Notes under the pieces: generated by a model
What the model was told of the DNA's origin: nothing
Database searches by the model: none
What the model saw: only the letters and a program-made list of their open reading frames with translations
Part shown: positions 1-64,000 of the stretch, in pieces
How positions within the stretch are numbered: position 1 is the stretch's first letter
Layout: every line of letters begins with the position of its first letter
Assembly: GCA_000165345.1 (NCBI GenBank)
Contig: CM000430.1
Coordinates: forward strand, 800,001-864,000
Reading direction: 5' to 3'
DNA: 64,000 nucleotides
Program-made: the position numbers and the translations under genes

Positions 1-420
1 AGTGGAGGTAATTTAAAGTTGATAATATAGGAATATTTTATTCTTTCTTATTCCTCTAAACTCTCTAAAAAATTTGCTTAATTGAGTTTCATAACACATT
101 TTAAAGGAGGAATAGCTAGTGATAAGCTTTTTCTATTCACGCTTTAAATACTGATAGAATATACAAAATAGCAGAGCAATTTTTTTCTTTTTTTTTTTGA
201 ATGCTGAGCTATTAAACAAGAACTTTACTTTTAAAATAAGAAAGAAAATAAAACTTCAAAGAAAAAGTCATCTATAGCTAATTTGAGCAAATAATTATAA
301 TCACCTATAAGTTACTTGTTAAAATAAATTAATATTCATTACATATGCCCATTACAAGAATACGAATATATGTATAAATCAACTTATTAAATTAAGATAA
401 TATTAGCTTAAAACAAAGTA

Positions 421-1899
421 ATGGAAGGAGTTAAGTATTCGAGAGGAGGAAAAGTTCACGTAGGTGAGGAAAGATCTCGTGGAGGCAGAGGAGGTTATGT
501 GGGGATGTTCGTAGATGGAAAGGGAAATGGACGTGGAGGAGGTACTTATAGGGGAAATAGATTTAGTAGAGGGAATAAAACAAAATCAGGATCAATTTAT
601 AGAGATCAGAATACCAAACTTGATTTTACAAGAAAGTTGCAGAGCTCTACAGAAACAACCGTAGGACCTGATGAGCTGGAGAAGAGCAGTGCATCAGCTG
701 ATTGTAGCAACAAAGTTGTCGTAGATACTAGTGACTTGCTAGCTAGTAGCTTTCGCATTCCACCGGAAAAGAAGTGCGATGAAAAGATTGGGGTAATACC
801 CAATGGAATTTCAAGCACCGAAGCTAGTGAGTATTGTAAAAGCCAGGGCTCAAGTCAGAATCCAAGCCCCTTAGGAGGCTGCCAAGAAAAGTTTAATACT
901 AGCTCAAATTTTTATGGTGATTCAAAACATTTCTCCAATTATAAACATTACAAGAAAAACCACTTCCAAAGCGCCTACCGGGGTAGAAGGAAAATGTTTA
1001 ATAAGACTCAAGGCGAAAAAGCTCTTGAAATGAATAGAGAACCTGAAAAGCAAGACTTAACTAGTCCTACTCCTAGTCCTGTGGAGCCAGCTCAGATAGA
1101 AGGGGTTGAAAGTATAAATACTAAAAAAGATGAACCAAAATTACCAACTTCTGATAAAAAAATCCCGAGTCAGGAAGATATTCTAGAAAGCCCAAGCAAA
1201 ATGCCTGATAAGAACTCGAAATGCACAGAGACTTTAATTAAGGACCAAGATAATAATATTAATTCCAATTCTCAGATGATTAGAGATGTAATTAACTGGA
1301 TGAAGGAACGCCAAGGAGAGGCAATTCAATGGCTCAAAGAAAATGGTAAGTATCCACAAGAAGAATATGTTCAGAACTCTGTTAGGAAGCCCCGGAAATT
1401 TTCCCAAGATGGAGGATTTAGGGAGAAAAAACAATCTTGGAATGGCAGCGAGCGAAATATAGAGGAGAAAAATCAGAGGTTCCCAGCAAAATACAAGGGC
1501 CAAAAGAAAGATACTCCCTCTTCTTATTCTCCTAAGACCCTAGTTAATCCAACAAATCAAGATAAGAGTAGCAATTCAACTTCAGAATGTTTAGAATTGT
1601 CAAAGTGCCGAGAAACTAGTAAACAATTTGGCGCCAATATTCCAAACAAAGACTTGGGTCAAAAGCTAGACTTGCGTGCAAAACAGAAATTTGAGTATAA
1701 TCGAAGATTCAGCAGGGAAAAAACTGGTAATTTTCATTTTCAAAACAAAACCAAGGAAGATGAGTCACGCCGCTCTACAGGAACAATAAATGACTCAAAA
1801 GATGGAGAGAAGAGTACTAACAGCAATAGTAACTTTAATACTCCTACCAAGTACAGAAATCAATACCACAAAAAGCAATCTGTTCAAAAAGATCTGTAA
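421..1899 (+). CDS. Hypothetical low-complexity protein with an N-terminal RGG/RG-rich box (possible RNA-binding or nucleolar protein)
   Basis: 492-codon ORF starting at an ATG. The N-terminus carries repeated RGG/RGGRGG/GRGGG motifs; the rest is Ser/Lys/Asn-rich low complexity. Codon usage matches neighbouring genes. Confidence 0.5.
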   Translation: MEGVKYSRGGKVHVGEERSRGGRGGYVGMFVDGKGNGRGGGTYRGNRFSRGNKTKSGSIYRDQNTKLDFTRKLQSSTETTVGPDELEKSSASADCSNKVVVDTSDLLASSFRIPPEKKCDEKIGVIPNGISSTEASEYCKSQGSSQNPSPLGGCQEKFNTSSNFYGDSKHFSNYKHYKKNHFQSAYRGRRKMFNKTQGEKALEMNREPEKQDLTSPTPSPVEPAQIEGVESINTKKDEPKLPTSDKKIPSQEDILESPSKMPDKNSKCTETLIKDQDNNINSNSQMIRDVINWMKERQGEAIQWLKENGKYPQEEYVQNSVRKPRKFSQDGGFREKKQSWNGSERNIEEKNQRFPAKYKGQKKDTPSSYSPKTLVNPTNQDKSSNSTSECLELSKCRETSKQFGANIPNKDLGQKLDLRAKQKFEYNRRFSREKTGNFHFQNKTKEDESRRSTGTINDSKDGEKSTNSNSNFNTPTKYRNQYHKKQSVQKDL

Positions 1900-2543
1900 T
1901 GCTATTATTACCAGAAACTCTCAAGCCTAAGTTAATATATGTATATATTTATTCTTATTTCTTATATTTATTATTGCGAATAATTCTCAAACTCTAATGC
2001 TTGAATAGAGTTGTTTTAATTTTCTTTAAATTTTTTCTAGTACGTGTTTTAAGTATTGACGTGTTTACATGCATTTTACTTTCTTTACATGTGGGGAGTT
2101 GCCGCCTTTCGATTTTTAGTGGAGAATATTCCAAGAAATAAAAAATCGTATTATTATGTTGGTGTGCATAAATGCATGTTTATATATATATACATATTTG
2201 GACTATTTGATATCTTAATTTTATAGTCTTTATCTCAAACTCATATTTTCTAACTATTTACAAAAACTCTGAATAAGAACCTATTCAGTATAGTCAATCT
2301 TTCTCTTTATTATTTACTCTATTACCATTTATAGGCTTTATAAATTGATATCTTCTAACATAATGATCACTAACCCACTTTCTTTCACTTTCTATAAACA
2401 TGAATAATTATTTTTTCAAAAAAGAAATAAAGATAAACAGCTAGTTCCCGCCAGCGGTATAATCCATTGTAATTAATTTACCAAGTATCGAGAAGGATTT
2501 GAGAGATAAATTATATCAATTCAGGGAAAAAATAGTCGGTTTT

Positions 2544-4205: not shown

Positions 4206-4798
4206 AAATCAAAAGCAAACTGGAGAACAAGTTCCCGCCTAATTTTTCTTAGCTAAGAAAATCAAACATTTTATACGTGTACATATAATTAGTTTAGAAA
4301 TGGCTAGTCCAGCCCGAATCCTCGTAGCAAGTAAATTATACAAAATAAGCATTATATATATCAATAGTATTACAATGTACTCGATATAATCCCGCTTAGA
4401 AATTCTTTGAAGCTACACTTCTTTTCATGTTCCTCGCATTATCAAAGTATTGTAATAGCTATTAAAACCATAAGAGCTCTGCTAGTACGATTCTCTCTCT
4501 ACTTAATTCTAACCAGATAAAAATTGTCAATCGACAATAATCATTACCTAATCAATAGCATGTATGCGTAATCTGCATATAAAAATGCATATTGAAATTG
4601 GGTAAAATGGAAATGGTCAAAGCAACCAAGTAATGCATTGTTAACTATTATTACTATAATTGTGTATTTTTGCATTCATTTAGTTAAGTTGTTTGAAATA
4701 AGATGACTATTTTATGTAACTGGCTTCTAAAATTCTTTCAGAAAAGAAGCAAACATAAAAGTCAATCTTGTTTTGTGACCAGTAGTTTTTCATTCAAT

Positions 4799-5770: not shown

Positions 5771-5948
5771 AATATCAAAAGCTGACTATTCCCACTACTA
5801 GCTTTGATTAGCAGTTATTTTTTAACTACTAATTCCCCTACTTCATACCAATTATATATAAAAATCCTCTTTTACTTTTCTTCAGTATCTTCTTTTCTTT
5901 ATATAATTCATTCCTTAATTACATTTTCTCTTGAGATTAGGCGGGAAA

Positions 5949-8093
5949 CTATTTTATTGGCAGTCGTTTTAAATATCTGCTACCGAAAAGGTATTCACAA
6001 ATTTCAAGAGAATTGTTTGCATTAACGGTTCCTTCTGTCATAACTATTAGAAGGTTAGGAATAGGTTTTTTCTTTTAAGAAATATTGTAAAACTTACCAG
6101 GAAGACCTCTAATTCGGGTAGCTCCTTTTAAAATACAATCTTTAATAGAATATATTGAGATATTTGGGAAGACTGAAAGCAAGACCCCAGCTATCCCAGT
6201 TATAATTGGGGCAGAGAATGAGCTACCATCCATACATCTATATTCTGTGTTGAGTGGATTTTAGTTAGAATTTGGGTTAATTTTGTATTTTTTAGATTTG
6301 CATGCATCTTACCTCCCTGTAGATATGTAGAGCAAATATTAACTCCAGGAGCTCCAATATGGACGGTCTTTCTTCCATAAGTTGCTCTTTCCATTAGTTC
6401 TCCATTACTTTAGGTGATGAATAAAGAAATGAATAGATAAAGTTTTTAATTAGAATGAAAATTAAAATTTATTACTTACCTTGTAATCGAAGTCACAGAA
6501 ATAATGTTTTCAGACCTGTGAATTAGTTAGTGAAATTCAATATAAAAGTTCAGAATGTTCTATTTATATGATTTCTTTTTAACTTACTTGAAAGATGAAG
6601 GGAAAGTTGGAACAATATCATTATTTCTATCGCTTTCATAATTACCAGAAGCTACAATTACCAACATTCCTTGATCTTCACTTCTTTTAATTGCAAGTCT
6701 TAATAATTCAATGCTTTTACTAAAGACAGTATTATTGATTTTTGATGTTCAGTATTTACACTAAAGGTACTTACCTTCTACTTCCATAGCTATGATTTGA
6801 TACTCTTACTCCTTTATCTAATGCATAGTCAATAGCTTCGACAAATCCTGATAGGAATCCTCTAATTTTTGAGTCCAAAACCTTTAATACCATGATTTGG
6901 CAAAACCAACAAATTCCTGAAATACCAACTTCCTTATTTGGGATTGCAGAAATGATGCCAGAAATATGAGTTCCATGTCCATTATTATCTACTGGTATTT
7001 TATTATTATCCACAAAATTCTAAAAGGGTTTGTTTAAATTATAAAAAGTTGTATATTAATAAAAACTTAACTTACCCATCCATAACAATCATCAACATAA
7101 CCATTCATATCATCATCAATTCCATCATTACAGTCAAACTCTCCAAAATTCCTCCATATTTTTCCTCTCAAATCAGGATGCTCAAAATCAATCCCAGAGT
7201 CAATAACTGCAATTACAACATTTCCCATTCCTTGATCCTTAAGTTCTGAAACTCTTTTCCACATTTTTGCTGACTTTATCCCAAATTTTGAATCATTATG
7301 AAACCATTGTCTTTCATAAATAGTTGAATAGTTTTCAGTAGTTATTGTTGGCCTGATGGAGTTATTTATTTTTGGTATCTCAAATGTACTTCTGTAATTG
7401 TTTTCTTCGAATCCAATAAACTCGTCCAAATACACTCCCTAATAAAAGTTACAAAAATCTAGACGTAGAATTATTATAACTTACCTGAATCAAATCTTGA
7501 AACAAGCTGACTTGATCCTTTATTACATTCAGGAATTTTGTCATCTGATCATTATCTTTAGTTTGTATAATCTCCATGCTTAAATTCTTTAAATACCTTG
7601 TTTTTGTATTGTTAAACTAATAGTTTTGAAGAATTAATTTGATAAAATGTTTCATTATCCTTCCCATACAAATTAAAATTGAACAAATATATGGGAATTA
7701 TGAAAGCTTAACTCACCTTGAGTATATTAAAAGCTCTTTCAATAATGTTTTTAAACCTCAATCTTAATCTTAAAAATAACTCACTTGAGCCACTATTACT
7801 ATCTTTATATACAAATATTATTCTATTCGAGTCTTGATATTGTGATTCATTAACTTTAATCTAAATACATGTGATATAAAGCAATGTTTTAATGAGAGTT
7901 ATTTTGAAATTTTAACAGGGATTTGTTACTAGTTACTTACCTTTTTTATCAAATCCGTTAACCTAGTACCAAGATTAGAATCCTGCCTTTTAGAAACTAA
8001 TTCAGCTCCATTTTCTATTCTAATCAAGTTCTGAGACCTAACTGTTATTATAATAGTTACCAGGATTTGAATTATCAGTAGTTTTGCCCTCAT
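5949..8093 (-). CDS. Subtilisin-like serine protease (peptidase S8), multi-exon (about 10 exons, 9 short introns)
   Basis: The ATG is at about 8093 and encodes the signal peptide MRAKLLIIQILVTIIITV. Hand-assembled minus-strand exons are approximately 8093-7941, 7860-7718, 7628-7486, 7441-7078 (catalytic Asp: VIAVIDSGIDFEHPDL), 7021-6774 (catalytic His: NNGHGTHISG), 6747-6617 (oxyanion Asn: IVASGNYESD), a short exon at 6538-6503, 6397-6283 (VHIGAPGVNICST), 6244-6098 (catalytic Ser: DGSSFSAPIITG) and a terminal exon ending in TAG near 5949. All introns start GTAAGT/GTGAGT, end YAG and are 60-100 bp. The ORF-track fragments 7067..7435, 6771..7013 and 6200..6394 are pieces of this gene. Confidence 0.6.
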
Positions 8094-8445
8094 TCGGAGC
8101 TATTGTTATTTTTTATATATTATATTTAAAAAAAAGAAATATATATTTTATATTATTTTCAATTAAAATATAATGAGCAAAAATTTCCTCTTCTTTTCCT
8201 ATCACCTATTATTGGAAAAAAAATATATTAAACTTTTAGTCAAATTGTTTTCTTTTATTTTTTTTCCCTCTGTTTACCTATATCTCATTATACTTATTCA
8301 AAATTCTTGCATTGTCTTTATAGATAACCCTAGTTTCTCCAACCTATATAATTAAACAACTTTATGTGTTTTTATATTTTTTACGTAATAATTTTAATGT
8401 GGACAATTGTTTCATATACCGGTGCTCCTATTACGTAAGAATAGT

Positions 8446-8483
8446 TTGCATGTAGTGCATGCAATTGAAATGCATGCATGAGC
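8446..8483. promoter_or_regulatory. Cluster of three GCATGC(A) palindromes (TTTGCATGTAGTGCATGCAATTGAAATGCATGCATGAGCG) upstream of the subtilisin gene
   Basis: About 350-390 bp 5' of the subtilisin ATG at about 8093 on the minus strand. An E2F-like half-site TTTTGCGGG follows at 8489-8497. Confidence 0.4.
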
Positions 8484-8625
8484 GAAATTTTGCGGGTTTG
8501 GAGAAGAAAAATAATGAACGCGAAAAATAGAGTTATTGGAAAGAGTAAGAAGCACTAATTATTCGAATTTTTAGTTTTTTTCCTTCCAAATTTGTGAATT
8601 TGAGAGGCTGAATTGAATCGTTTTT

Positions 8626-10710: not shown

Positions 10711-10882
10711 TGCTCCAACTTGAATTGATAAATTAACATATTAATCACTATTTACACCACTATTTCATTGGCATTCATAATCTAACAAAATATATTGGAA
10801 TTTTTTTTAAGTATATGATTATTATTTATTTATTTATTAAATCCACTATTTTTTCATTAGTGTGGTGCTAAACTACATACAA

Positions 10883-10894
10883 TTTGGCGCCAAA
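10883..10894. promoter_or_regulatory. E2F-like palindromic site TTTGGCGCCAAA upstream of the 694-aa gene
   Basis: Perfect palindrome about 175 bp 5' of the ATG at 10710 on the minus strand. Confidence 0.4.
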
Positions 10895-11046
10895 CTGATT
10901 ATCATTAATAATTCTGGTAATATTTAAAATTGCATGCAATTTTTGCATGCGATAAATGGAGAAAAAAAAAGCAGGAAAGGGAGAAATTAGAGAAATGTAA
11001 AATTAGAGATAACTTAATAGAAAGATAATAATTGTGAAAAATAATA

Positions 11047-13245
11047 TTAGCCCCAGAGAATTAGGGATGGTTTTCCGTCTTTGTTAATTCCAGCTGTGAA
11101 TATCCAAGGTTGCCTTGGATGCCAAATAGCTGAGCTAATAAAAGAAAGCTCTCCTTTAATTACCTTTAGAGGGACAAAAACGGGATCACTCATTAGATCT
11201 GTGGGCATTCTGCAATGGAAAACATTAATAGTGCCATTTTTACTAGCAGAGAAAACCATAGATTTTCCTTGGTGGAATTGTACTTTTTTGATAGCTGATT
11301 CACTATATCTTAAAAGTTTATAAGGAGTATTTCCAAGATCCAGATCAAACCAGGCAATTCTTCCATTGGATTGTCCGACAAAGATATGTTTCCCTGAAGA
11401 ATCTAAAGAAATGGTTGTTGGATCTTCAATACCAATAAGTTTTTTGACCAAAGCTTTACCAGTATTTTGGTTACCAAGCTTCTTATTACCTGTTTTACTA
11501 GATGTTAGGTCAACAATCCTAATACATGTTTGAGTAGCAACAATAAGCCATGGGTTAGATGAGTGAAACTGAACAGATTTAACCAATCCACTAAGTTTTT
11601 TAAATGCAGTAATTGATGAGCATCTATTGATAGAATGAATAACAACTCTTTGTGAAGGTGAAATAGCTCTTGGAGATACTGCAGCTAAATACCCTCCTTT
11701 ACTATGCCAGGATAAATGTCTAATAGTAGATTGATGTTTAATTACAACAGCTGAGCTTAATTCTTTATTTAATTCAGAATTAGAATCCAAATTAATGCTA
11801 TTCCATGAAAGTAACTCCAATTTACTGGATTCTTTATTATAAGTATGGAGATCCTCAAATAATTCCAAAGAATGTTGATAATCTTTTATTGGGTCCTTTT
11901 CCTTGTTTTTAGAATTTTTAATTATTTCATCTGAATCCGAAGTTTCTTCCTGTTCAATATCAGTGGAAGCTTCAGAGTCTTCTGCAAAGCAAATGCTTGG
12001 AAGTTTCAGTACTAAAATAAAGAGATATTCCTCAACTCCACAAGCTAAAATAGGCAAATTAGGATGAAACGCTAGAGTTGTTATAGAGTTTGTGTTAGAT
12101 TCTTGTGTTTCATCACTAGAAGATGGTTCATCGTAGATATTTACTTGTTGAGCTAACTTTGATATATCCAATTTAAAAGCTATTCGTGAAGTAGATATTT
12201 CAAATACTGTCAATAGATTACCTACTCCCACAGCTAGCCAGAATCCATCAGATGATGCAGACATTTGTATATTTTTACTGTCAATAATTTGATCAAAGTC
12301 ATATCTAATTCTGATTGAAGTTGGATAAGGTTTCAAATCGCTTGTATCAATTGGGGGAGGCAAGATACTTTCAGGATCAACGTTCATTCTCATTTTCATA
12401 GCTCTAGGACACAAATAAAGATCCAAGCAACGCTCAAACCTTTCAGTAATGAGCTTGTCATAAGCTGGTACCCTTCTTAGACAATCAAATTTAGATGGTA
12501 TAAATGTATTTTCCAGTTCACCCTCTTTCTCAAGCTTAGAAATCTCATCCTCATCAAACAAGTACTCTTCTGGAGGATTATAGCTATGTTCATGAATTGG
12601 GAGTTCCATTCTTGGTGCTGGGATATGAGGAGGCCCTTTAGAAGTAGTTTCATCAACAACCGGATCCAAAATTGCATCTTCCCAAATATCAAATACTTCC
12701 GGTTCCTTCTTCTTAATAGGATGTAAAATCTTAAGCCTTATTAACTTAATTAGATGAGTAATTTTCTTTGCTTCCCATTTAGATGGTATAAATCCGCGCT
12801 TAGGTACTGGTCTGTTTGATACTGGGAATATTTTATCTTCTAGACTGTCATTTTCATAATGGTAGCTTTCCGCATCAAAGTCAGGATTAGCATAAGTTTG
12901 AGATGAAATTCTTCGGATTATGTCCAAATCCTCATCAGTAAGTCTAACTGAAGTCTGATTTTTTTGATCGTATATTGTTCTCCATGCATCTGGATCTGTT
13001 GAATTTAGTAGAGCTTGTAACTCAGAATCTAAAGAGAAAAATGTATTAAATATATTTCAATAAGTACTAAATATAGATCATTGAGTTAACTTACCTGACT
13101 TATTGAGTAGTTTTTTCAGCCTCTCACCGTCGATTGTATATCCTTGGTGATCAAATTCGTCATACCAATGTAAAGGTACATTTCCAACGCGATTTACCTC
13201 CTCATCCTCATCTGAAATGTACAAATTTTCATCGATATACTCCAT
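11047..13245 (-). CDS. BOP1: Ribosome biogenesis protein BOP1/Erb1 (BOP1NT domain plus WD40 repeats), 2 exons
   Basis: Exon 1 is 13245..13095 and encodes MEYIDENLYISDEDEEVNRVGNVPLHWYDEFDHQGYTIDGERLKKLLNKS, which matches the BOP1 N-terminal motif IGNVPLEWYDDYDH. A 66-bp intron (13094..13029) runs from GTAAGT to TTTAG. Exon 2 is 13028..11047 and stays in frame with ORF 11047..12927. BOP1NT signatures include HSYNPPEEYL and RCLDLYLCPR. The WD40 C-terminal half ends ...WHPRQPWIFTAG. An E2F-like AAAGGCGCCAAA lies about 125 bp upstream. Confidence 0.8.
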
Positions 13246-13368
13246 TGTACTTTTGATACTTTATTTACAGAGTATTTTTTTAATTCTATTTTCCCTACCT
13301 TTATCCACCTTTTTCTATGGTCTTTTTTTACCATTTATATGTTTATTGAAGTGGCGCTCAGTCACTTT

Positions 13369-13384
13369 AAAAGGCGCCAAATCT
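13369..13384. promoter_or_regulatory. E2F-like site AAAGGCGCCAAATC upstream of BOP1
   Basis: About 125 bp 5' of the ATG at 13245 on the minus strand. Confidence 0.4.
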
Positions 13385-13643
13385 TTTCTGCCTCTATAAT
13401 TCTCTTTTTCTTCTATTAGTAGGGTGCTGCTCCAGGTATTCAGTAATGATTAATTTTAAACTGTCTCGTGATTAGAATGAGTGCTTACTCATGTATTTTA
13501 CCACTCATGTAAGATATTTGCTTAGGTTTTTACCTTGTTGATGTTCTTCTTGGTTATCTCATTTTCTAATTTGTGTCTTTACATTCTCAGCATGCACGTT
13601 TTAATATATTAATATTTTGACACGTAAGTTTTAGTAATGAGTT

Positions 13644-13660
13644 GCATGCATTCATGCGCA
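13644..13660. promoter_or_regulatory. GCATGC motif pair TGCATGCATTCATGCGC upstream of the giant gene
   Basis: About 300 bp 5' of the ATG at 13951. There is also CATGCACG at 13591-13598. Confidence 0.35.
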
Positions 13661-13950
13661 AACTTTTTGTAAAACTACCGGTATTAGGAATTATATTATC
13701 ATTTTGAAACATCAAGACAGTAGAAAATTGCAAATAAGCTTACAAAATTAGAGCAAATCAATTAAATGATTTTTAACTCAATTCCTCTTTATTATCAACA
13801 ATGATGAGTGAAATATTACATTCTTCTCATTCTTTTAATGACTTTATAATGAGATAATATATTATTTTTGCCTTGCCGCCCCAAAGTTACGAAATATAAC
13901 ATGTATTGAAAATAAGAAAAAATAAATGTGACAAGGGTTTTGATATTAAA

Positions 13951-16900
13951 GCAATGAGAAATTGCGTTGAGGAAAATGGAGCAAATGGTGTGCAGAGCTT
14001 GATCAAGACATTTGTGAAAGAGGACCCTTCATTTGTGATTTTACAGTCCATTAAAAGTAGTAATTATTTGGAACTTACAGATGGAAGGCTTTTGGTATCG
14101 CATAACCCCAAATTAATAGCGAATTTGACAACTAAAGGTCAACTTAGTGTATTTCTAGATACTTCTAGAGGTGAAATTGAAAATATTGATACTAGACAGA
14201 AGGATATTGTTTTAAAGGAAATTAAATTGCCATTTTTAAAAGAGAAAACTGAGTCAAAAACTGTGATATCAGAAGCTATTTGGTGCAAGTCTATTATAAG
14301 AGAGGATCATCTCAGAGAGTATGAAGTTGCTCCAACTTTGGTTATTCTTGAAAAAACAACAGAGTATATCGAAAAAGACGTCAAATGCAAATACTGTAGT
14401 AAGTATTCAGGAAATCAGTTTTTGACAATAATACAGTTTTCTAGAATTGGAAACTTTGAGGATGGGGAATGTGAAATAATTGAATTGAATGCAAAGAATA
14501 ATTTGGAAAATGTAATCAACTTTAATAGGCCAATATCTATTGATTTTGAAGTTACAAATACTCATAAACCACCTATTTCAAATCAAATGAGAACAATAAT
14601 CAGGTACAGTCGAATTCCAATTATAGATATATTCAATACTTTTTCTAATAAGAAAGCCCAATTTTCCGAAAGCCATAAAACTTGTAAAAGCTGTTTCTCA
14701 TTTAATAATGCTCAAACTTTTGTTGATAACTCCATGGAATCAGGTTTTGTGATAATTATGGCTAATTTGATAGTATTATCTTTGGATTTTATTCAAGGTA
14801 ATTCTTTAATTCTAAAAAGAAGGTTTCTTATTCAAGATTTTCGAGATCCCCAGATTCGCTTTTCTGGTTTTACAATACAAAGTGGATGGCTTGTTTCAGT
14901 ATCTATTGATACTTTGGAGCTATTAATTTGGAACTATTATCAGGGAATAGCCTTTAGAATGGTTAAACTGAGTGAAGATTACTTTGATTTCACAGTTTCA
15001 AATGAGTCAAGAGTTGATGTTTTTGTTACTCTTTCATTTGGAAAAGATTTATCCAAGTTATTTTTAGTCTTTGATGGCTTAAATGAAAATGCTTCCAGTC
15101 ATATAAAACAAGTTGGGATGTATATAATTGATTTAAATGCTATTTTTAGTCAAATTTTCTGCTCTAATTGTATTTTAAAATACTTGATAGACACAAGAAA
15201 AACTTCTGAAATGAGAATATCTGATCCAGGAACTGAATTGAAGAAAAAGTTGCAAATAAGCTCAGGAAGTATACCTCACGTACAATTATATGAAGAGTAT
15301 TCATCGCTCACAGTTTATCCTGAAGCTTTCCATTTTGGAAAAGAACATAAAGCTTTGGAAAAAATCATGAAATGTCTTTCGGAAGAATCTTGTCAATATT
15401 TAGACTCTTTAGATTGGGCAAAAAGCTTGAATCTAAAGTTGGATTTAACAAAATATGAATTTGGATGGCCTCTTTTGTTTAACAAAAGTTGGTTTTATGG
15501 AGATCTATTTTGCAATTATAAGATGAATCAGATCATTATTACTACAATTGAAAATATCATTGCAAGAAACAGCATCGGAGAAGATTTCATAGATAATTTT
15601 GAAGAGCTAAGTAATAATATATATTTAAAGACAATTTCTAGCCATTTAAAAAAGGTTTTAGAAGGGATCCCTGAAATTTTATTTTCGAAAACAATAAGTC
15701 CTAAACAAAGTAATAAGAATTGCTCAGAAATACTTGGAAATCAAGAAACTGATAATCATTTTCAACGTAAATTGATATCTCACAAAACTAGCTTTATATA
15801 CAGTCATTTAATTCCAATTACCATTGATGAATTTCCAAATCATGAAGAATTTCAATACGAGATTAGTTTTATCGATATTATTCCATCATCTGATACAGTT
15901 TTAATACAATTTTCTATTCGAGATTTACCTAAGAAGCATCTAAGCTTTTACATTTCTGAAGAAAGCAAAAATCTTTTTATTAATCAGTTAAGCTTTGAAT
16001 GTGAATATACTACGTTGATTATGGGTTTAACTAAAGTTATAGATTGGCATTACTTTGCACTGAAAGATGTTAGAAGGGAGAAATCTTACCTTGGTCTTTT
16101 TTCAAAAACTATAAGCTTACTTGGGCTCATTTATTCCACTGTAAGGTACCAGGATATTGACAATTTGCAAAAAATTTGTGAGTATAACAATGTAGATCCA
16201 TGCATTATTCCATTAATACAATTGGAAATAGGATTCAAACATGAAGAATTAAAGCTTATTAGCCTTTCTTTGGAAAATACTCCAATGATACTTAATCTAG
16301 AAATGGTTAAACTAGCAAGAAATATGTTGCAAGATGCTAATTTGCATTTATCTTTGGATTTTACAAGAGAATCATCCAAGCTTTTCCTTGATTTTTGCCT
16401 GGACAAAATCAAATATTATTCCGAGAATGAGTCAACAGAGATTTCTGAAGAAAAAAACCAACAAAAGTGTAAGGTTGATGAGTTTCTACAAGAAATTTCT
16501 TACTATTTGTCAGAATTTAGAATGTATTTAAATAAGACTTCAGAATTGACAACCTATGTAAAAGTTTGTGACAACATACAAAAAGGTGATCAAAATTCAG
16601 AGGATGAATTGATTAACGAAACAAACAAAGTAGCTGATGAAGATGGAAGTAATCATGATAATGAGATTTTGAGTAAAAATGAGATATTTATAAGAGACCA
16701 GATAATAATGGGACATTATTCAAGTTTAATTGATTGGTATTTAAAAAGTAGCAAAGATAAAAACCCTCAAGTATTTAGATTAAAAGTTTTACATGATATT
16801 TATAGACTGATTTGTACTTTAAGTACGAATTCTTTAACATTATCAATCCATATGTTGAGACAAATTGGTGAGAATACAACACAGTATCTTAAAAGCATTC

Positions 16901-42128: not shown

Positions 42129-42301
42129 CAAATATTAATATATTTATTTTAATGTTTTAGAAGGTAAAAGGCAACATTAGAAATAAAAAGGGAGAAGTAA
42201 AGGGTGAAAATTGCCATAATATATTTCAACCTTCTGTCCTTAAGTATAATTTTAGATAAGGAAGGTATTGTTGGGGTTTTGTAAATTAGGAAGGGGCAAA
42301 T

Positions 42302-47352: not shown

Positions 47353-47366
47353 TTTGGCGCCAAATT
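47353..47366. promoter_or_regulatory. E2F-like site TTTGGCGCCAAATT upstream of the EF-hand gene
   Basis: Lies in the 220-bp spacer between the genes at 46800..47114 and 47392..48501. Confidence 0.4.
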
Positions 47367-47391
47367 AGCGCAATGCTACCGCCTATATTAA

Positions 47392-48501: not shown

Positions 48502-49264
48502 TTTTCAAATCACTTATATTAACGTTAAATTCTTCACTTCTTGATTTAACCTTCTCTAAATCTTCTTCTATCACCCTGAAATCCACTTTTCTATTGATTT
48601 CTCCTTATTCCCTTTTAATTAGTATTTTTATTTTACACCAAATTTCACTTTTGCATATAAATTAATAATTATTGGATCTTCTTTAAACAATTTTAGCTAT
48701 TAACAAAAGCCCGCCTAATGGTAACTTAAATTGCATGTACTATTGGTAGCAACAATATAATAATAATTACATTAATATTAATATTAGCAAAAATTGATCA
48801 GTATCTCACTAGTACTTTGAAAAACTAAATTCTTAGTTAAGTTTATGAAACTTTAGAATTTATCACTGAATTAAAGTAAAAATTGTTTTCATTGCCACTT
48901 TTTTTCTGAATATATATTTGTTTATTAATAATAAAAAAAAATTACAGCCTATTTAACATGCATGCAGATTTGAATTAAAAATAAAATAGTTGCCAAATTT
49001 TAATAATACTAAAATTCGAGATTGAAATGCTGTATATTTTAATTTGTGTTACATAAATATATATATTTCAATGATAAATATATATAATTTCATCTTGATT
49101 TTAAGCTAGCCAAATTTCAATGCAATTTTCAGGGTAATAATGCATTATCTCTGTATGCTAGATAACAAAGTTAAATCCCTAATGGAATTAATTGTCTAAT
49201 TAATACTAAATAGTAATAGTTGTATTATTATCAAAGACAAAATTCAGTTTTTATTAAAGCAAAT

Positions 49265-50792
49265 ATGAGTAAAAGTTCTTCTAAAGAACTTAAAGTAGTA
49301 CACTCCAAAGAAAAGCTAAATAATAAGTTATTTCATGAGTTTAATTCCCATACAATTTCTACAAATGATTCGAGAGATAATGAAGATTCTTTATTAGCAA
49401 TTTCATCTATTAATGCAATACCTACATCACTTAAAATATCAAAAAAACATACAACTTCAAAAATAAATAATCAAATTGTCAATAACTCTTATAACTCAGT
49501 TATAGGAGAAGAAAATGAAGAAAAAGAATACTCTTATAATAAATTTAAGAGTCAAGAGTTAGATCATCAAGAAATCAAAAAGAGTAATACAGGACAAAAA
49601 AAAAAGAAATGGCATCAAAAATTCAAACTTTCTTTTTTACTTTTTAGTTATAACAAGAATATTGAAAAAAATAAAGTTAAGTCTATTAAAGACAATTCAA
49701 ATATAAATAAAATGGAACAAAACAAAGAAAATATGAATAGTTATAACCATAAGCATAGTTGGACTTTACCACTTAAAGATTTTACTTCAAGTACGAAAAA
49801 AGAAAATTTTGAATCAAATAACTCCAATTTGAGTATTGGAAACAATCATATTGCTTTTTCTACTCAAACTTGTTCATCTTCATTACCTAAATCTTTGAAC
49901 TCACATATATCTTACATTCCCACAACCAAATCTCCTACATCATTTACAAATACTTCTTATATATCATCTTCACCATCGTCATCATCATCTTCATCCTCCT
50001 CATCATCATCTTCTTCTTCCTCAGCTTCATTTTTAACACCATCATCATCAACTCAGTTATTTTCACCAAAAATGTCTTTAATATCGTCTTATATTACTCA
50101 AGAAGAAGAAGTATTAGAAGCAGGAATTTACGATAAAGATAATTTAGGTAGGAATGGTTTTAGTTTAAGAAGTATTACTGGCGATAGGGAAAGTATTATA
50201 TATGATGAAGACTATGAGTCTTATTTAGAAAGTACAATTAAAGAACCATTTTTGGAACCACAAAGAAGAGAATATATTGGAAGGAAGACTCTAGTTTTGG
50301 ATCTAGATGAAACTTTAATTCATAGCTCATTCCAGCCAATCAGAAATGCTTCTTTTACTATCAATATTGAGATTGATGGAGATTATTACGATGTATACGT
50401 ATTAAAAAGGCCAGGAGTTGATAAATTTTTGAATATTGTTTCAGCAATATTTGAGGTTGTTATTTTTACTGCTAGCTTATCAAAATATGCTAATCCACTT
50501 TTGGATAGACTTGACCCAATGAATAAATGCCCTTATCGTCTATTTAGAGAGAATTGTACTGTAGAGGGAAATTCCTATATCAAAGATTTATCTAAGCTTG
50601 GAAGACCTCTTAAAGATATAATAATTATTGATAACTCACCTATATCATATATTCTTCAACCTGAAAATGCTATCCCAATTTCATCATGGTAAGATTTTAA
50701 TTTTCACCTTAATTAATTAACTTAAGCTTGAAATCTTTAGGTTTAGTGACGAAAGTGACACTCAGTTGATTGACCTTATTCCTCTTCTTGAA
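49265..50792 (+). CDS. NIF/FCP1-homology CTD-like small phosphatase (at least 2 exons; 3' end uncertain)
   Basis: The track ORF 49220 starts at a TTG; the ATG is at about 49265. The NIF motif I is [16 protein letters not shown], followed by the core ...[12 protein letters not shown]...FTAS...NSP. Exon 1 ends at ...SSW with a GTAAGA donor at 50689. Exon 2 (50741-50792) encodes [17 protein letters not shown], typical of the NIF C-terminus. A further short exon may follow. Confidence 0.7.
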
Positions 50793-51220
50793 GTAAGTTT
50801 ACTATCGATTCTAATAATAATATGAAAAAAAGTGTGAGAGTAGTATATATAATTTGTAACTCATTAAAACACTATTCAATAGATACAGCAATATATATAT
50901 GTTGTATTTATAGTCTTTTGCATTATATTAGAATCATCATTAATATATATATAATTCTAAATTACTCATTAAAGATGATTGCTCAAGGACATCCAACCTT
51001 ATCTACTTCATTTGGAAGTATAAGTGATTATTATATATCTGATAATAGTAATAATAAAGAGCAGACAGAACTTATTGAATTTAGCAGTTCTTCTACAATC
51101 TATGTTGAATCATCATTTTATCATCCAAAAGAACTCTACTATTATTGACTTTACTCAATAAAATCTACATTAATTTAATATAATATAATTGATTTACAAT
51201 GGGTTCTACTAGTTTCCTCA

Positions 51221-51637
51221 CTATTTTATAAAGTTCTTTATTAAATTACTAACTGCAATAATTTTATATGCTACATTCATATACTTATTTAGTTGTATTT
51301 TACAATATTTACATGATTCCTTTGTTTTTTGTATTTCAATACTTTCCTCATCGTCTAAATCTGATGTATCCTTATTCCATTCTTTTACCAATTTATTAAA
51401 TATCTAAAAGTTTAATTAAAATAAAAATTAATCAAATATTTGTAAATGTTTAATAATTATTGTTTCTTTCCAAGTGTAATTCTAGGCTTGCACAAAATTG
51501 ACAAAAAGCCACTTTTGGCGCCAATGTTATATAAATATATATATAAAATTGCACAAATGCATGCAAACCTGAATTAATGAAAAACTTACCCCAGAAAAGT
51601 CTTCAGGATCTTTCGACTCTTTAATCACCTTTTTCAT
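51221..51637 (-). CDS. Candidate small 2-exon gene (about 77 aa, CKYC motif), or alternatively the 3' exons of the upstream 601-aa gene
   Basis: ATG at 51637..51635. Exon 1 (51637-51590) encodes MKKVIKESKDPEDFSG. An intron runs from GTAAGT to CTTTTAG. Exon 2 (51403-51221) encodes IFNKLVKEWNKDTSDLDDEESIEIQKTKESCKYCKIQLNKYMNVAYKIIAVSNLIKNFIK*. Confidence 0.25.
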
Positions 51638-51799
51638 TCTAAGATAGCAGTAAATACTAATTTCATCAGGAATACCCTGTAAATATAAATTTTGTTAGTT
51701 ATTGTTAATGAAAAAAAAATTGTGGCTTCCCGCCAAAAAATGCAATTTACATGCAATATAGAATAAAGAGGGAAAACCAATAGAATAGTGGGGTAGATA

Positions 51800-53605
51800 T
51801 TATAAATATAAACTTACGCTTGGGAATGCGTTGTTAATTGAAAATTCACTTGTAGCAGATTCTACAATTGCTTCAAACATATCATCTTCTTCATTTCCTG
51901 TATAATCATTTTCTTCAGCACCATGAAAATGGTCACTATTTGCACATTTTGCAAAATCTGATGATAATTCAGAGCTATCTCTTTTGCGTTTCCCGCCTGT
52001 TCCTGTTGTAGAACCACCAAAAGAATTTTGTTGACCTCTAATTATTTGACCTGTCAATTTTGAATAAAGAGTGTATAGTTTCTCAATAATTAAGTCTGTA
52101 TTGATTTTAGAGGGTAAACTATTATTAGGATTTGATTGTTCTGAATATTCTAGTAGTTTAAAATCTATTTCATTAATTCTTTGTATAATTGCAAGAATAT
52201 AGTGAATATAATTTAGTTTAGGAATTTCATCTTGGCTTTTTGAGAAAGTATCAATAATCTGATTAAAATCAACTTTTTGAATGTTGAAATCTTCATTTGT
52301 ACAACCAAAAATCGATTCTTTGTGATTATTAACTTCATTAATAAGATCCTGACAGTTTTGTAATAAATTATTAGAATCTTGCATTGGAATTTTTGAGTTT
52401 TCAAGATTAACATTAGAATTCTGTAAAAAAGATATTCTAAGTGCATTTTCAACTAACGAGGAAATAATATCATTCAAAATAAAGCTGAAAAGTTGAAGGG
52501 AATTAGATGGTATTTGAGAAACTTTAGTTTCTTTAAGCCCATTATTATATGTAGTATTCCAAGTAATTGAGAGCCATTCCTGCAGAGTGTTTATAGAAGG
52601 TCTAAAATTCTTTTCTCTTAACATTGCAAATTCTTTATAAATCTCTGCTGACATATTTTTGGTTCTTATATCTCTTAGTTTAAGTCGATCTTCAAACCTT
52701 TTATCAATATTAATCATCATATTTGAGGGTAAATTATTATTATTATTAAAGTCAACACCATCATTTTCATCTAAATCATTTATTGCATCATCTTCTTTAA
52801 CTACTGAAGAAATACCTGTAATATCAGGATCTGTACCTTGAATCATACCATTTTCAGTATTTGAATTCATTCCTACATGTCTATGTGCTGATTTATTAAT
52901 TAATGTGTCATAATCAAATTTGCTTACTTCTTGTTTGTAGTATTCACTAAAATGTTTCTTTATCATACTATTTGTAAGTTTATTTGAAACTTTTTTTTTC
53001 TTTGAGTTGTTAATTAGGGAATTCCAAAATAGTGATATCCAAATATTTAAATAGGATTGTACTAACCTTACACTTTTTTCTTGACAATCTTTATTCTTTA
53101 AAAAAGGTCTGATATCACCTGCAATATACATTGTTCTAGATATTACAGAGTTTATCGGAGAAAATGTAGATACCATTAATTCTTGAAATATCTTATTTGA
53201 GTATAAGGATTGTGATGACAAACAAATTTCATCTTGATTTCCTTTTTCTGATTTTATAGTTGTTTCCTTATTTGCTTCTATTTCTAAAGGAATACATCTT
53301 GGATGAACAATTGAGGTTTCATTTTGGTTTTGACCCTTTATTGGAGAAGACGAAGAAATTTGCGAATCATCATTAACAATTTCAGTTTTTGATTTGTTAG
53401 GAGTGTTTTCTTTTGGATCTTCACTAACAGAATTGTTATTTTGAGTTGAGTTAGCTTTTTTATTTGATAGAATTGCAATCAGTTCTGACTTAATTCCAGT
53501 CGGAAGCTCACTAATAATTTTTGGCCAGGAGCTTTTTGGACATTTCAATAATTCCTCATGAATTTGAGAACTATTTAAGCCTTGAAACTTTGATAAATCT
53601 GCCAT
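51800..53605 (-). CDS. Hypothetical protein (601 aa); the 3' end may extend through two further exons
   Basis: ATG at 53605. The ORF ends at a TAA that overlaps a canonical donor (CCAAGC|GTAAGT at about 51818). In-frame candidate downstream exons lie at 51676-51590 and 51403-51221 (see findings). Confidence 0.55.
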   Translation of the reverse strand: MADLSKFQGLNSSQIHEELLKCPKSSWPKIISELPTGIKSELIAILSNKKANSTQNNNSVSEDPKENTPNKSKTEIVNDDSQISSSSPIKGQNQNETSIVHPRCIPLEIEANKETTIKSEKGNQDEICLSSQSLYSNKIFQELMVSTFSPINSVISRTMYIAGDIRPFLKNKDCQEKSVRLVQSYLNIWISLFWNSLINNSKKKKVSNKLTNSMIKKHFSEYYKQEVSKFDYDTLINKSAHRHVGMNSNTENGMIQGTDPDITGISSVVKEDDAINDLDENDGVDFNNNNNLPSNMMINIDKRFEDRLKLRDIRTKNMSAEIYKEFAMLREKNFRPSINTLQEWLSITWNTTYNNGLKETKVSQIPSNSLQLFSFILNDIISSLVENALRISFLQNSNVNLENSKIPMQDSNNLLQNCQDLINEVNNHKESIFGCTNEDFNIQKVDFNQIIDTFSKSQDEIPKLNYIHYILAIIQRINEIDFKLLEYSEQSNPNNSLPSKINTDLIIEKLYTLYSKLTGQIIRGQQNSFGGSTTGTGGKRKRDSSELSSDFAKCANSDHFHGAEENDYTGNEEDDMFEAIVESATSEFSINNAFPSVSLYL

Positions 53606-54252
53606 TTATTATTAAATGTTTTTAACTATCTAACTAAAACATTCCAATCAGAATTCAATTAATATATCAAAACATATTCAATAATTAGATTCCTTCCAAT
53701 TCTTTTCATATAAACGAAAATAAACAATGTGAAGTAATGATATGAATACTTTCTGCTTTATCTAAAAATTCTTTCTTTTTACTTTTTATTTTTTTTTAAA
53801 TATTATTAAACTTTTCTGTATATTATTTATTTCTAATATTAGTAAACTTTGTTTAATTGTTTTGGTCAGATATTACTTTTTAACCAGTAAAAATAAATAA
53901 AAAAAATAATTATTCCAATCTTTTCAATAATAATTAACGTCGAATTATTGCAAATAGATATATAAATTTCAAATGATTAATGTTAAAGTCTAAAACTTAA
54001 TATTATTATTGATTAAAAAAAAAAAAATTTTATATAAATTTATTTATATATAATTATAATAAATTTATATATTAAATATTGTTTCCTATACCGGTGTTTT
54101 ATGTACGCCACGTAATTGATTTTTTTTTTTAATTAATAAATATTCACACGTGTACAAATAATATATTTATTTAAAAAAAGCCCAGATATTTTTATTGTTA
54201 GAAATGAAGCTTTTTATTGTTAATGAAATAGATATATGATGTATTATTATAA

Positions 54253-56063: not shown

Positions 56064-59633
<3,570 letters not shown>

Positions 59634-60097
59634 TTTGCATGCAACTTTGGCGCCGGTAATTTTCCTCTATTAATTTTAATAATTGCAAATGGCATGTAAA
59701 GAATGAATGGGGAATTGGCGGGAAGTAACATGATTAAATCTAAAAATAGTTTAGGAAAGAAATTGAGTTAAATATTAAGGTAAATTTTTTTTTAATTTTT
59801 CTTTTTTGAATGGAATTCTAATAATAAAATAGTAATATTAATAACAATATTATAATTGTCAAATATTTAAGATCTTTCCAAATCTAAGTGTTTGCTAATA
59901 TTTTTAATAAAATTTTGATTCAAAAAGAAGAGGGTGCAAATTTTAAGAATAAGTTTGACTTAATATTTGGAAATTCCCAAAAAAAAAAAAAAGATTCCTG
60001 TAAGCTTAAGACGAGTAGTAGAAAAGCAAATATTGAATAAATTAGTTTTAGTTAAAGAGTAAATACATAGTTTATAAAAAGCATAAAAGAGGAGGGG

Positions 60098-61672: not shown

Positions 61673-62756
61673 AATGAAATCAATCTAACTATTTAGAGAT
61701 GATTTTCTGAATGAATGTATGCTTATGTGTGTTTTTTTTAATATTTAATTTCCTTTTTCTGAAGAATTTCTTTGAAAAATCAAGTATAGCAATAAACAAA
61801 AAAAATCATATATTATTGGGAAAAGATTATTTAGGTAAATAAAAAATATTTATATATATATTTTTTAATATTTATTGTAAATCGAATTTTACATTTTTTC
61901 CCCTAATTTATATTAGTTTTTTGTCAATCCACATGCAAACATGCATATACAGTTTCTGTTACATGCAATAAAAATTGCCAATATTAACTTAAAATTTTGA
62001 TGTGGACGACCGGTATTTAAAGTTTGCATGCAATTATGTAAAAAAAAATTTCTACAAATATTAACACGTGTCAAAAATATTAAATTGAAAAAATGATGAA
62101 TTTATGAATGTTTCAATATTTTGTTAATTAAAAAAAGCAAACAAAAAATTTTTTTGTGTATCAGTACAAAATAAAGAATAAAATAAAAAATAAGTAAAAT
62201 ATTAACAAAGGTATTTTTGTGTGAGTTATAAAAATAAAACAACTATTTTGGAAGCTAATAAAACAAGAAAGAAAGTAAAAATACAAGTTAGAGCTGAAGA
62301 GCTTTAATAGACAGGAAATAAATGTAAATAAAGGAAAAATTTAACAGTTGTAAGAAAAAAAGTGGTATATATTTAAGATAATCCTTATACTTAAAATCTT
62401 GTCAAATATTAGTCATTAACTTGTTTAAGGGGAAATTTGTTTAATTTACAAGGCACATTGTTTTGTTCAAATTAAAACAATGTCTTTAAATTGCAAGGCG
62501 CCATTTCGATTTTGAATTAAAGATTATTTTATGAAAAAGATAGGGACAAGAAAAGTGTGAAAGCAAATAATATCATTATCATTATTATTACTATTATTAT
62601 TATTACTGTTACTATCATTACTACTATTATTATTTTTAATACTGGACTAAATAACAAATAAGAGAGATAAAAAGAAAGTAAACTGTAATGTTGAAATCTG
62701 ATAATAACATTTCTTTTTAGCAAGTGTTAAAAAAAAAGAAGCTAAAAGCTCAAATA

Positions 62757-64000
62757 ATGCAGGGGGGTTCAAACGAAGATGTACAAAAATTAAATCCCAA
62801 AGATCATGATTCAATATATAAGCCAAAAAGATGGTTTCATGCTTTTTCTCCTAGATATTTAAGTTTTGGTTTTATTTCCCCATATATGAAACTGAAAGAT
62901 AAAGAATTAATGAAAGAGGAGGATCTACCAGAAATACCTTCAAAGGATGATCCATTTATATTGGGGAGACATTTAGAACAAGCATTGAGAAGAGAGGAAA
63001 GAGATGCGATTCTGGGTGAAAGAGAGCCAAGTTTAATGAGGGCTTTATTGAGAGCATATTATCCATTTATTTTAATATGCATTTTTTCATTAACAATAAT
63101 AGATGTGATTCGTTTTTCAGTTGGATTTATTATTAAAAGCATTGTGGCAGATTTACAAAAGCCTATGCCACTTAATGATGCTAGCAAGGTGAATTCAGTT
63201 ATTAATTTCTTATTGGTTTTTTTTATAATGCTGTTTTCATCTATATCAATACCGCATATAGTTTTTTTTCAATACAGGTATATTTTTAGAATATATTCAA
63301 GTTTAGCAACAAATATATTATGGAGAGGTTTGAAAAAGTCTGGAGGTCTGTTGGTTCGAAAAAGTATTGACAAGAATGGTTTAATACCTCCAACAGTAAT
63401 GGATATGAATTTAATTGAAAAGATGAATAAAGATCATAATAATTCAAAGAAATTTTTTAAATTATCAGCATTAAGTTTTTTTAAGAAAAAATCATCATCA
63501 TCATCTAAAGAAATTGAAATGAAAGATTCACTTAAGAAAGAATTCAGTATTTCAAATTATAATGGAGGTGAAAGTTTTAGTAACTTAAAAGATTACCAAA
63601 GTCATGCAATCAGATTAAACTATATTAATATATACAATGTAATGATGGGAGATTTATTTCCATGTTCTATTCTATTGGGAAATTTAATCAGCTTAATATT
63701 ATTTCCTCTTAGAGTAATACTAGCCAGTTATGCAATCACCATTATATTAAAATCATCATTACATAATGGAGAAAATCATTTGGATTGGATAATCAATGTA
63801 TCATTAATATCATGTATTACAACTTTGACTTTATTTATATCAATCAGTGCAATATTTCAAATAAAAAGTGGATTTTTAAGAAAACCATTATTTTTTGCAA
63901 AAGATTGCCGATTAGACGAGTTACGATATATACTATCAAATATTAGAACAATTAAGCTCTTAAATTGGGAAAGCTTTGTTTACAAGAATTTAGTCGAATT
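62757..64000 (+). CDS. ABC transporter, ABCC/MRP-like, 5' part (runs off the window)
   Basis: ATG at about 62757. There is no stop before the window end, which is why the track lacks it. The N-terminal TMD pattern KPKRWFHAFSPRYLSFGFISPYMKLKDKELMKEEDLP...REPSLMRALLRAYYPFIL and the motif DELRYILSNIRTIKLLNWESFVYKNLVE match the MRP-family TMD1 signature R.k.mnEiL.GIK.LKLYAWE.aF. Confidence 0.55.
   Translation, partial: MQGGSNEDVQKLNPKDHDSIYKPKRWFHAFSPRYLSFGFISPYMKLKDKELMKEEDLPEIPSKDDPFILGRHLEQALRREERDAILGEREPSLMRALLRAYYPFILICIFSLTIIDVIRFSVGFIIKSIVADLQKPMPLNDASKVNSVINFLLVFFIMLFSSISIPHIVFFQYRYIFRIYSSLATNILWRGLKKSGGLLVRKSIDKNGLIPPTVMDMNLIEKMNKDHNNSKKFFKLSALSFFKKKSSSSSKEIEMKDSLKKEFSISNYNGGESFSNLKDYQSHAIRLNYINIYNVMMGDLFPCSILLGNLISLILFPLRVILASYAITIILKSSLHNGENHLDWIINVSLISCITTLTLFISISAIFQIKSGFLRKPLFFAKDCRLDELRYILSNIRTIKLLNWESFVYKNLVE

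Follow-up and report, generated by a model that had tools for sequence, protein, structure and literature searches.

Two kinds of short DNA motif recur upstream of genes in Cryptosporidium parvum. Oberstaller et al. (2013; PMC3734150) reported that E2F-like sequences, their motif 3 (DTTGSCGCCH) and motif 4 (TTTGGCGGGAAV), are the commonest upstream motifs of this species, that 163 of 200 expression clusters, with 2,379 of the 3,281 genes, have them upstream, and that the ApiAP2 motif BGCATGCAH is likewise over-represented upstream. Three putative E2F and two DP1 proteins are encoded by C. parvum, and the AP2 domain of cgd2_3490 binds [T/C]GCATGC[A/G] in vitro on protein-binding microarrays (PMC3734150). 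Isaza et al. (2015; PMC4637869) described the introns of the species as well, giving a mean length of 99 bp, a GC content of 22% and from 2 to 10 exons in each spliced gene. The share of C. parvum genes credited with introns depends on the annotation: it was 4.3% in 2004 and 10.8% in 2015 (PMC4637869), is 11.1% for Iowa II in CryptoDB (PMC8767354) and 18.9% in IOWA-ATCC (PMC10438818, Table 1), for whose introns PMC8744675 states a support by RNA sequencing of 100%. Some other Cryptosporidium annotations give 20-24% of genes as spliced (PMC10438818).

Here we consider a 64-kb stretch of DNA (contig CM000430.1, positions 800,001 to 864,000; hereafter the window, with coordinates counted from its first nucleotide), its E2F-like and GCATGC motifs and its spliced genes. 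An earlier note, made from the letters of the window alone, had assigned it to a Cryptosporidium-type genome on account of its promoter motifs and had regarded its intron density as unusually high. We are confident that the window is an ordinary segment of C. parvum chromosome 2, and that both its motifs and its spliced genes are real and already described or annotated. The assignment of the note was borne out by DNA and protein identity to C. parvum itself; its reading of the introns as unusual was not.

Placement and gene content of the window

The window covers about cgd2_3630 to cgd2_3870 of C. parvum chromosome 2. Its nucleotide sequence is 100% identical to loci of CP029781.1 and CP044421.1 over stretches of 11.9-24.7 kb, and in the last 14 kb the identity is 99.87-99.98%, single short indel(s) being the only difference. 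By exact-sequence look-up, the window open reading frames (ORFs) of 492, 495, 745 and 524 amino acids are identical to EAK88664.1, EAK88657.1, EAK88658.1 and EAK88648.1 of C. parvum Iowa II. The orthologues in C. hominis, C. tyzzeri, C. meleagridis and other species are separate, non-identical cluster members, mostly of other lengths. The SNF2 ORF and four other window proteins are encoded on contigs of about 992 kb in four annotated C. parvum assemblies (CP029781.1, CP044421.1, which is IOWA-ATCC, CM109962.1 and CP141119.1), the called genes tile the window in the same order across the annotated assemblies, and the numbering is anchored by locus tags 2g3630, 2g3650, Cgd2_3680, 2g3695, 2g3720 and 2g3830. 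The current models of cgd2_3630-3870 in these four assemblies have the same gene order and the same spliced genes as the window, and for five of the seven spliced genes their protein products are identical to those of the window. Two small differences between assemblies may represent repeat-length variation: the formin (56064-59633) has 1189 amino acids in the window allele and 1183 or 1187 in two other C. parvum assemblies, and a 3-nt intergenic indel occurs among the assemblies at about 53606-54252.

Taken together, the gene calls of the annotated assemblies amount to 25 tightly packed protein-coding genes. The window has a GC content of 29% and is densely filled with long ORFs, so that coding sequence accounts for 48.9 kb, introns for 1.9 kb and intergenic DNA for 13.3 kb; intergenic DNA has 24% GC versus 31% for coding DNA. 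Pfam families represented are bromodomain, subtilisin, BOP1/Erb1, SNF2 ATPase, GST-C-like, sedlin/TRAPPC2L, EF-hand, NIF phosphatase, formin and B-box. Scans of the 64 kb for transfer RNAs and Rfam families returned no match. Seven of the 25 genes are spliced in the IOWA-ATCC annotation, and six of 26 in two other annotation sets; each of the remaining 18 is an uninterrupted ORF with a span of three nucleotides per amino acid of product plus a stop codon.

One locus outside the window also differs between annotations. About 0.8-5.4 kb to the left of the window start (locus L008, 4172-8763), IOWA-ATCC has a single WD40 gene of 1353 amino acids with about 530 bp of intron sequence, two other assemblies have two unspliced genes (279 and 956 amino acids), and the syntenic region of C. 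muris has one spliced gene of 1256 amino acids (L022, 17059-21027).

Spliced genes and the age of their introns

Spliced genes were recognised by comparing the annotated span in IOWA-ATCC with three times the product length, and their models were reconstructed by an exhaustive (memoised) search for GT/GC-AG splice combinations, bounded by the annotated span and length, followed by translation. The seven genes contain 22 introns: nine in the subtilisin gene, four in the mucin-like gene, one in BOP1 and two in each of the other four. For five of them the reconstructed products, seven isoforms in all (two each for the subtilisin and the small membrane protein, and one each for BOP1, cgd2_3720 and cgd2_3830), equal the annotated proteins exactly.

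The subtilisin gene cgd2_3660 (Peptidase_S8; 5949-8093, reverse strand) has 10 exons separated by introns at 7861-7940, 7617-7716, 7439-7484, 7020-7075, 6720-6774, 6516-6587, 6408-6479, 6245-6312 and 6044-6097. The last intron has an alternative acceptor (6032-6097), 12 bp from the other, and the two spliced products, of 513 and 509 amino acids, are exactly QOY42863.1 and KAL5370161.1. BOP1/Erb1, cgd2_3680 (11047-13245, reverse strand), has two exons and an intron of 66 bp at 13029-13094, only a single model fitting; its 710-amino-acid product is exactly QOY42861.1, and splicing raises the BOP1NT Pfam score from 216.9 to 281.5 bits with the full profile covered. The small membrane protein gene 2g3695 (25896-26350, reverse strand) has introns at 26204-26307 and 25986-26051 and a product of 94 amino acids; in IOWA-ATCC only the first intron is called, giving 79 amino acids and an end at 26007. 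Both products are exact matches of annotated proteins (KAL5370165.1/WKS76668.1 and QOY42859.1). A single model likewise fits cgd2_3720 (34423-35065, forward strand), with three exons, introns at 34777-34855 and 34964-35017 and a 169-amino-acid product that is exactly KAL5370168.1/WKS76671.1; the gene is otherwise annotated as a "partial" of 167 amino acids without a terminal stop codon. The gene that the earlier note had called a possibly spliced 601-amino-acid gene, cgd2_3830 (51221-53605, reverse strand), does prove to be spliced: it has three exons, introns at 51677-51817 (141 bp) and 51404-51589 (186 bp), and, in the best model, GTAAGT at both donors and a product of 685 amino acids that is exactly QOY42846.1/KAL5370179.1. 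The 2004 model of this gene, EAK88649.1, is a single exon of 601 amino acids.

The remaining two genes are those without a reconstructed exact match. The mucin-like gene (inferred cgd2_3780; 44159-46078, forward strand) encodes a Ser/Thr/His-rich secreted protein in five exons, with introns at 44230-44358, 44451-44507 (or -44519), 45799-45847 and 45942-46042; only one canonical model with at most four introns fits the annotated span and length (527 or 523 amino acids). The two lengths, which are found in different annotations, correspond to acceptors 12 bp apart. The NIF/CTD-like phosphatase gene (inferred cgd2_3810 plus cgd2_3820; 49265-51148, forward strand) encodes 549 amino acids in IOWA-ATCC, and its span relative to product length implies 234 bp of intron. 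The first intron lies at 50689-50740; once it is removed, the NIF Pfam match scores 190.8 bits instead of 165.6 and covers profile positions 1-155 of 160 instead of 1-134; the best model places the second intron probably at 50793-50974. Gene by gene, then, the splicing calls of the earlier note held (nine introns in the subtilisin gene, four in the mucin-like gene, one in BOP1, three exons in the gene at 34423, one or two introns in the small membrane protein gene, a spliced NIF gene). Its tally of at least eight spliced genes among about 26 did not, as the count is seven of 25 and the note had itself named seven.

All 22 introns are GT-AG, with donors GTAAGT (17), GTAAGA (3), GTGAGT (1) and GTAGTG (1), lengths of 46-186 bp (mean 85) and a mean GC content of 21% (range 0.14-0.29). 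They have the features of canonical (U2-type) spliceosomal introns and resemble those described by Isaza et al. (PMC4637869) in being GT-AG, short and 21% GC, with from 2 to 10 exons per gene; the one respect in which the window stands at the edge of that description is the subtilisin gene, which at 10 exons is at the reported maximum.

Are these introns old? For the two spliced genes that were compared, subtilisin and BOP1, annotated orthologous proteins were mapped exactly onto their own loci, and position and phase proved to be conserved in both. The subtilisin gene has nine introns in C. parvum, nine in C. bovis and eight in C. muris, of which six occupy the same alignment column, in the same phase, in each of the three species. 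Two of these six also occur in the Neospora caninum homologue, the best apicomplexan homologue outside Cryptosporidium: one after ...DDCYGW (phase 0) and one at ...HSYGS (phase 2). The BOP1 intron follows codon 50, in phase 1, in C. parvum, C. bovis and C. muris. Because the same positions recur across the genus, and two of them in a coccidian homologue, the subtilisin and BOP1 introns are, by position and phase, retained ancestral introns, neither annotation artefacts nor recent gains. The comparison of intron positions between orthologues that the earlier note had suggested thus gave conserved positions in C. bovis and C. muris, and introns that are annotated alike in the reference and in orthologues cannot be called unusual.

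The relatives of the subtilisin beyond Cryptosporidium include bacterial S8 peptidases with 41-44% identity, slightly above the apicomplexan ones by score (Neospora 38%). A recent bacterial origin of the gene was considered and rejected, since two of its intron positions are common to the Neospora homologue, and the same sharing argues for vertical descent with intron retention. In the picture we propose, the seven genes carry 22 ordinary spliceosomal introns (short, AT-rich, GT-AG and mostly with GTAAGT donors) that are likely to be genuine and old and that stand in current reference annotations, and a single gene, the 10-exon subtilisin, supplies nine of them.

Promoter motifs in the window

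The window contains 14 GGCGCC, 17 GGCGGG/CCCGCC, 17 GCATGC and 12 TGCATGCA sites. In whole-window dinucleotide shuffles, which never reached the observed values, 2.0 strand-hits to GGCGSS were expected versus 50 observed, and 0.4 sites for TGCATGCA versus 12. The sites are concentrated between genes, where 24 of 31 E2F-like and 14 of 17 GCATGC sites lie, at a density about 20 times that of coding DNA; the 48.9 kb of coding sequence holds a single GCATGC. Shuffling each spacer separately gave expectations of 0.36 for the intergenic E2F-like sites (24 observed) and 1.22 for GCATGC (14 observed), with none of 1000 shuffles reaching the observed number. Intergenic TGCATGCA sites number 10 (of 12) versus 0.18 expected, and the extended E2F forms are still rarer by chance: 11 intergenic TTGGCGCC/GGCGCCAA versus 0.06 expected, and nine GGCGGGAA/TTCCCGCC versus 0.03.

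Placement relative to genes is largely as the earlier note had described it. The note had counted at least 20 E2F-like sites upstream of start codons, and 21 intergenic ones do have a start codon ahead of them at a distance of 97-449 bp, which for 18 falls within 90-400 bp. Its figure of at least 12 GCATGC(A) clusters at 90-400 bp was slightly overstated: GCATGC is indeed enriched upstream, but its 14 intergenic sites form about 10 clusters, lie 92-731 bp from the start and fall within 90-400 bp in 10 cases. An E2F-like site is present in the 5' spacer of 20 of the 25 genes, and GCATGC in that of 11.

The E2F/DP consensus, [C/G]GCGC[G/C] or GGCGGG with a TTT/AAA flank, is matched in the window, where 31 sites were listed with their flanks, and so is the palindromic core of the ApiAP2 AP2_1 element, [T/C]GCATGC[A/G] (12 TGCATGCA and 17 GCATGC sites). 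The sites here share core and flanks with the published E2F/DP motifs, as TTTGGCGCCAAA (10886 and 47356) and TTTTGGCGGGAAA (26683) illustrate; they are likewise strongly confined to upstream spacers, and most genes have them upstream in both cases (20 of 25 here; in PMC3734150, clusters with 2,379 of 3,281 genes). We see no substantive difference, except that a few well-formed window sites are in introns near the 3' end, at the 3' ends of coding sequences or in convergent spacers. The same is true of AP2_1 (PMC3734150): the window has the same palindromic TGCATGCA, often paired, in non-coding upstream DNA, and nothing substantive differs, three sites being joined to an E2F-like site at a fixed offset of 10-12 bp in an arrangement that we have not found described. 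As identified by core and flanks, what the window displays is the promoter code of E2F/DP and ApiAP2 already published for C. parvum. On this reading, the short 5' spacers carry the two most familiar promoter elements of the species, an E2F/DP site (TTTGGCGCC or TTTGGCGGGAA) and a palindromic ApiAP2 site TGCATGCA, mostly 100-450 bp upstream of starts, and, by analogy with the literature, E2F/DP heterodimers and ApiAP2 proteins would bind these sites and set transcription.

Some sites keep their upstream position in the orthologous genes of C. bovis and C. muris. In C. bovis, BOP1 is preceded by GGCGCC at a distance of 176 bp and the orthologue of the 694-amino-acid gene by GGCGCC at 184 bp; in C. 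muris, the subtilisin gene has TGCATGCA 189 bp upstream. As for overall density, the syntenic block of C. muris (L022) has one E2F-like and one GCATGC site in 2.8 kb of spacer, and that of C. bovis (L023) two E2F-like and no GCATGC sites in 4.0 kb, whereas the matching C. parvum spacers have about five E2F-like and about six GCATGC sites in about 3.4 kb, a density clearly above that of the other two species.

The individual spacers are as follows, in window order. In the bromodomain promoter spacer (1900-2543), CCCGCC is at 2447, 97 bp from the start, and the spacer of the 323-amino-acid gene (5771-5948) has GGCGGGAAA at 5940. The subtilisin promoter spacer (8094-8625) carries TGCATGCA at 8457 and 8472, and that of the 694-amino-acid gene (10711-11046) carries TTTGGCGCCAAA at 10886, TGCATGCA at 10932 and GCATGC at 10945. 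The divergent spacer between BOP1 and the 3948-amino-acid gene (13246-13953) has GGCGCCAAA at 13373 and GCATGCA at 13590 and 13644. In the spacer at 26351-26888, upstream of the small membrane protein gene, are TGCATGCATGCA at 26442/26446 and the composite GCATGCGTTTTGGCGGGAAA at 26672-26691, while the divergent spacer of the SNF2 and 495-amino-acid genes (31548-32731) has TTGGCGCCAA at 31949, TGCATGCTTTGCGCGCCAAA at 32165-32184 and TGCATGCA at 32626. The cgd2_3720 promoter (34220-34422) contains GGCGCC in tandem at 34273 and 34279; the promoter of the GST-C-like gene (36217-36656), CCCGCC at 36335 and GGCGGGAAA at 36541; and the divergent spacer of the 462- and 745-amino-acid genes (38046-38689), TGGCGGGAAA at 38209. 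The promoter spacers of sedlin/TRAPPC2L and the 376-amino-acid gene (40928-42301, a range that includes the sedlin coding sequence at 41174-41626) hold GGCGCC at 40943, 41859 and 42116 and CCCGCC at 41015. Sites in the mucin-like promoter spacer (43433-44158) are GGCGCG at 43691 and GGCGGG at 43844; in that of the EF-hand gene (47115-47391), TTTGGCGCCAAA at 47356; and in the divergent spacer of the 369-amino-acid and NIF genes (48502-49264), CCCGCC at 48710 and TGCATGCA at 48960. Lastly, the B-box promoter spacer (59634-60097) has the composite TGCATGCAACTTTGGCGCC at 59636-59654 and GGCGGGAA at 59717, and the spacer upstream of the 1928-amino-acid gene (61673-62756) has TGCATGCA at 62026 and GGCGCC at 62497.

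The composite arrangement occurs three times (26672-26691, 32165-32184 and 59636-59654) and consists of TGCATGC followed by TTTGGCGGG, TTTGCGCGCC or TTTGGCGCC (TTTGGCG or TTTGCGCGCC in its shorter form), at a fixed 10-12 bp start to start. About 0.16 such pairs would be expected from random placement in the 13.3 kb of spacer, a rough estimate made post hoc on a small sample.

Sites inside genes have a distribution of their own. Nine of the 10 E2F-like or GCATGC sites in gene bodies lie at a relative position of 0.68-0.88 of the host gene (1630, 3952, 3965, 6300, 51517-51992 and 61474), the exception being 5339 at 0.44. Within cgd2_3830, the two 3' introns, both unusually long, hold TTTTGGCGCCAAT at 51517, TGCATGCA at 51559 and, on the reverse strand, TTTGGCGGGAAGC at 51729, with CCCGCC at 51992 in the exon next to them; four other genes have well-formed E2F or TGCATGCA sites at their 3' ends. 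In addition, the convergent spacers 4206-4798 and 46079-46799 have E2F-like sites with good flanks (4234, 46138 and 46432) that face no start codon. The second of these spacers, 3' of the mucin-like gene, is 721 bp, which is long for its type, has no ORF of at least 35 amino acids and may be the site of a non-coding transcript missing from the annotations. Li et al. (2021; PMC7840661) described antisense long non-coding RNAs (lncRNAs) that begin near gene 3' ends with both motifs upstream, and by analogy the starts of such antisense lncRNAs would be the likeliest explanation of the gene-body and convergent-spacer sites. Probing the supplements of that study with CPATCC gene IDs and six 15-mers, each in both orientations, found no lncRNA at these sites, a weak negative in that the sequence list is partial and line breaks can split probes.

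Intron density and alternative readings

A question that follows from the count of spliced genes is "Compared with what is the window rich in introns?" The earlier note had placed it far above a reported range of 5-15% of genes, a benchmark that is outdated, and the apparent excess arises because of that comparison. The binomial tail probability of seven spliced genes in 25 is 0.0001 relative to the 4.3% of 2004, 0.014 relative to the 10.8% of 2015 and 0.18 relative to the 18.9% of IOWA-ATCC; for the six of 26 in the other annotation sets, P = 0.37 relative to 18.9%. The spliced-gene share of the window is therefore not significantly above that of the species: seven of 25 is within sampling noise of about 19% and is unremarkable. 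The older models within the window illustrate why earlier shares ran low, the subtilisin having been a partial of 321 amino acids, BOP1 a partial of 669, cgd2_3830 a single exon of 601, and cgd2_3810 and cgd2_3820 separate genes.

Several observations do weigh against so plain a conclusion. Seven of 25 is nominally high relative to the 2015 share (P = 0.014), and 22 introns in 25 genes, nine of them from the subtilisin, are about five times the 2015 per-gene average, from which about 4.5-4.8 introns would be expected; there may be a mild local excess of introns. The NIF locus is annotated in two other sets as two unspliced genes of 475 and 108 amino acids. Finally, the mucin-like products of 523 and 527 amino acids and the NIF product of 549 had no exact match in the look-up, although this is weak evidence, as the SNF2 protein was missed by the same look-up yet is present in the other index (51 blocks).

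One alternative that would make more of these points is that the window is a true local cluster of intron-retaining genes, that the sites in cgd2_3830 introns, at 3' ends and in convergent spacers are antisense or internal promoters, and that the composite is an ApiAP2/E2F module; taken together, we regard this as unlikely. To the proposal that reference annotations still under-call small exons here, so that the true intron density would be higher yet, we give little credence. The earlier note, which had raised it, was right about older annotations: the recorded share went from 4.3% in 2004 to 18.9%, replacing partial and single-exon models, and the current annotations of C. parvum still disagree on the NIF gene (549 versus 475 plus 108 amino acids), the small membrane protein (79 versus 94) and the two alternative acceptors of the subtilisin and mucin-like genes. 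The shortfall has since been corrected, however, in that each gene named as spliced in the note already has a spliced model in one current annotation or more, the ORFs of the other 18 genes are uninterrupted, and the six long spacers that were checked contain no ORF of at least 70 amino acids.

Still less credence goes to the simpler idea of an atypical neighbourhood, a genuine hotspot on chromosome 2 in which introns were kept non-randomly. It would account for the 28% of genes that are spliced and for the number of introns in 64 kb; furthermore, the window includes the gene with the species' reported maximum exon number (PMC4637869), and three of nine genes are spliced in the C. muris syntenic block. 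But the excess over 18.9% is not significant for either count, nine introns belong to one gene, and the window was chosen post hoc for its intron-rich look. That the DNA belongs to a relative richer in introns, be it a different Cryptosporidium species or a gregarine, as the impression of a high intron share and the 20-24% of spliced genes in some annotations (PMC10438818) might have suggested, can practically be dismissed, given its 100% DNA identity to C. parvum chromosome 2, several proteins that equal Iowa II entries exactly, and orthologues in C. hominis, C. tyzzeri and C. meleagridis that differ in sequence.

We return, then, to the window as an ordinary segment of C. parvum chromosome 2, whose promoter code and introns are the already known biology of the reference genome and nothing new. 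The result is of small value for discovery. It shows that a reading made without tools recognised Cryptosporidium from promoter motifs and called introns correctly gene by gene; the "unusual intron density" was the product of an outdated benchmark. For C. parvum, the share of spliced genes should be taken as about 19% rather than 5-15%, and the cgd2_3660 subtilisin offers a handy example of ancient introns kept in an otherwise intron-poor genome.

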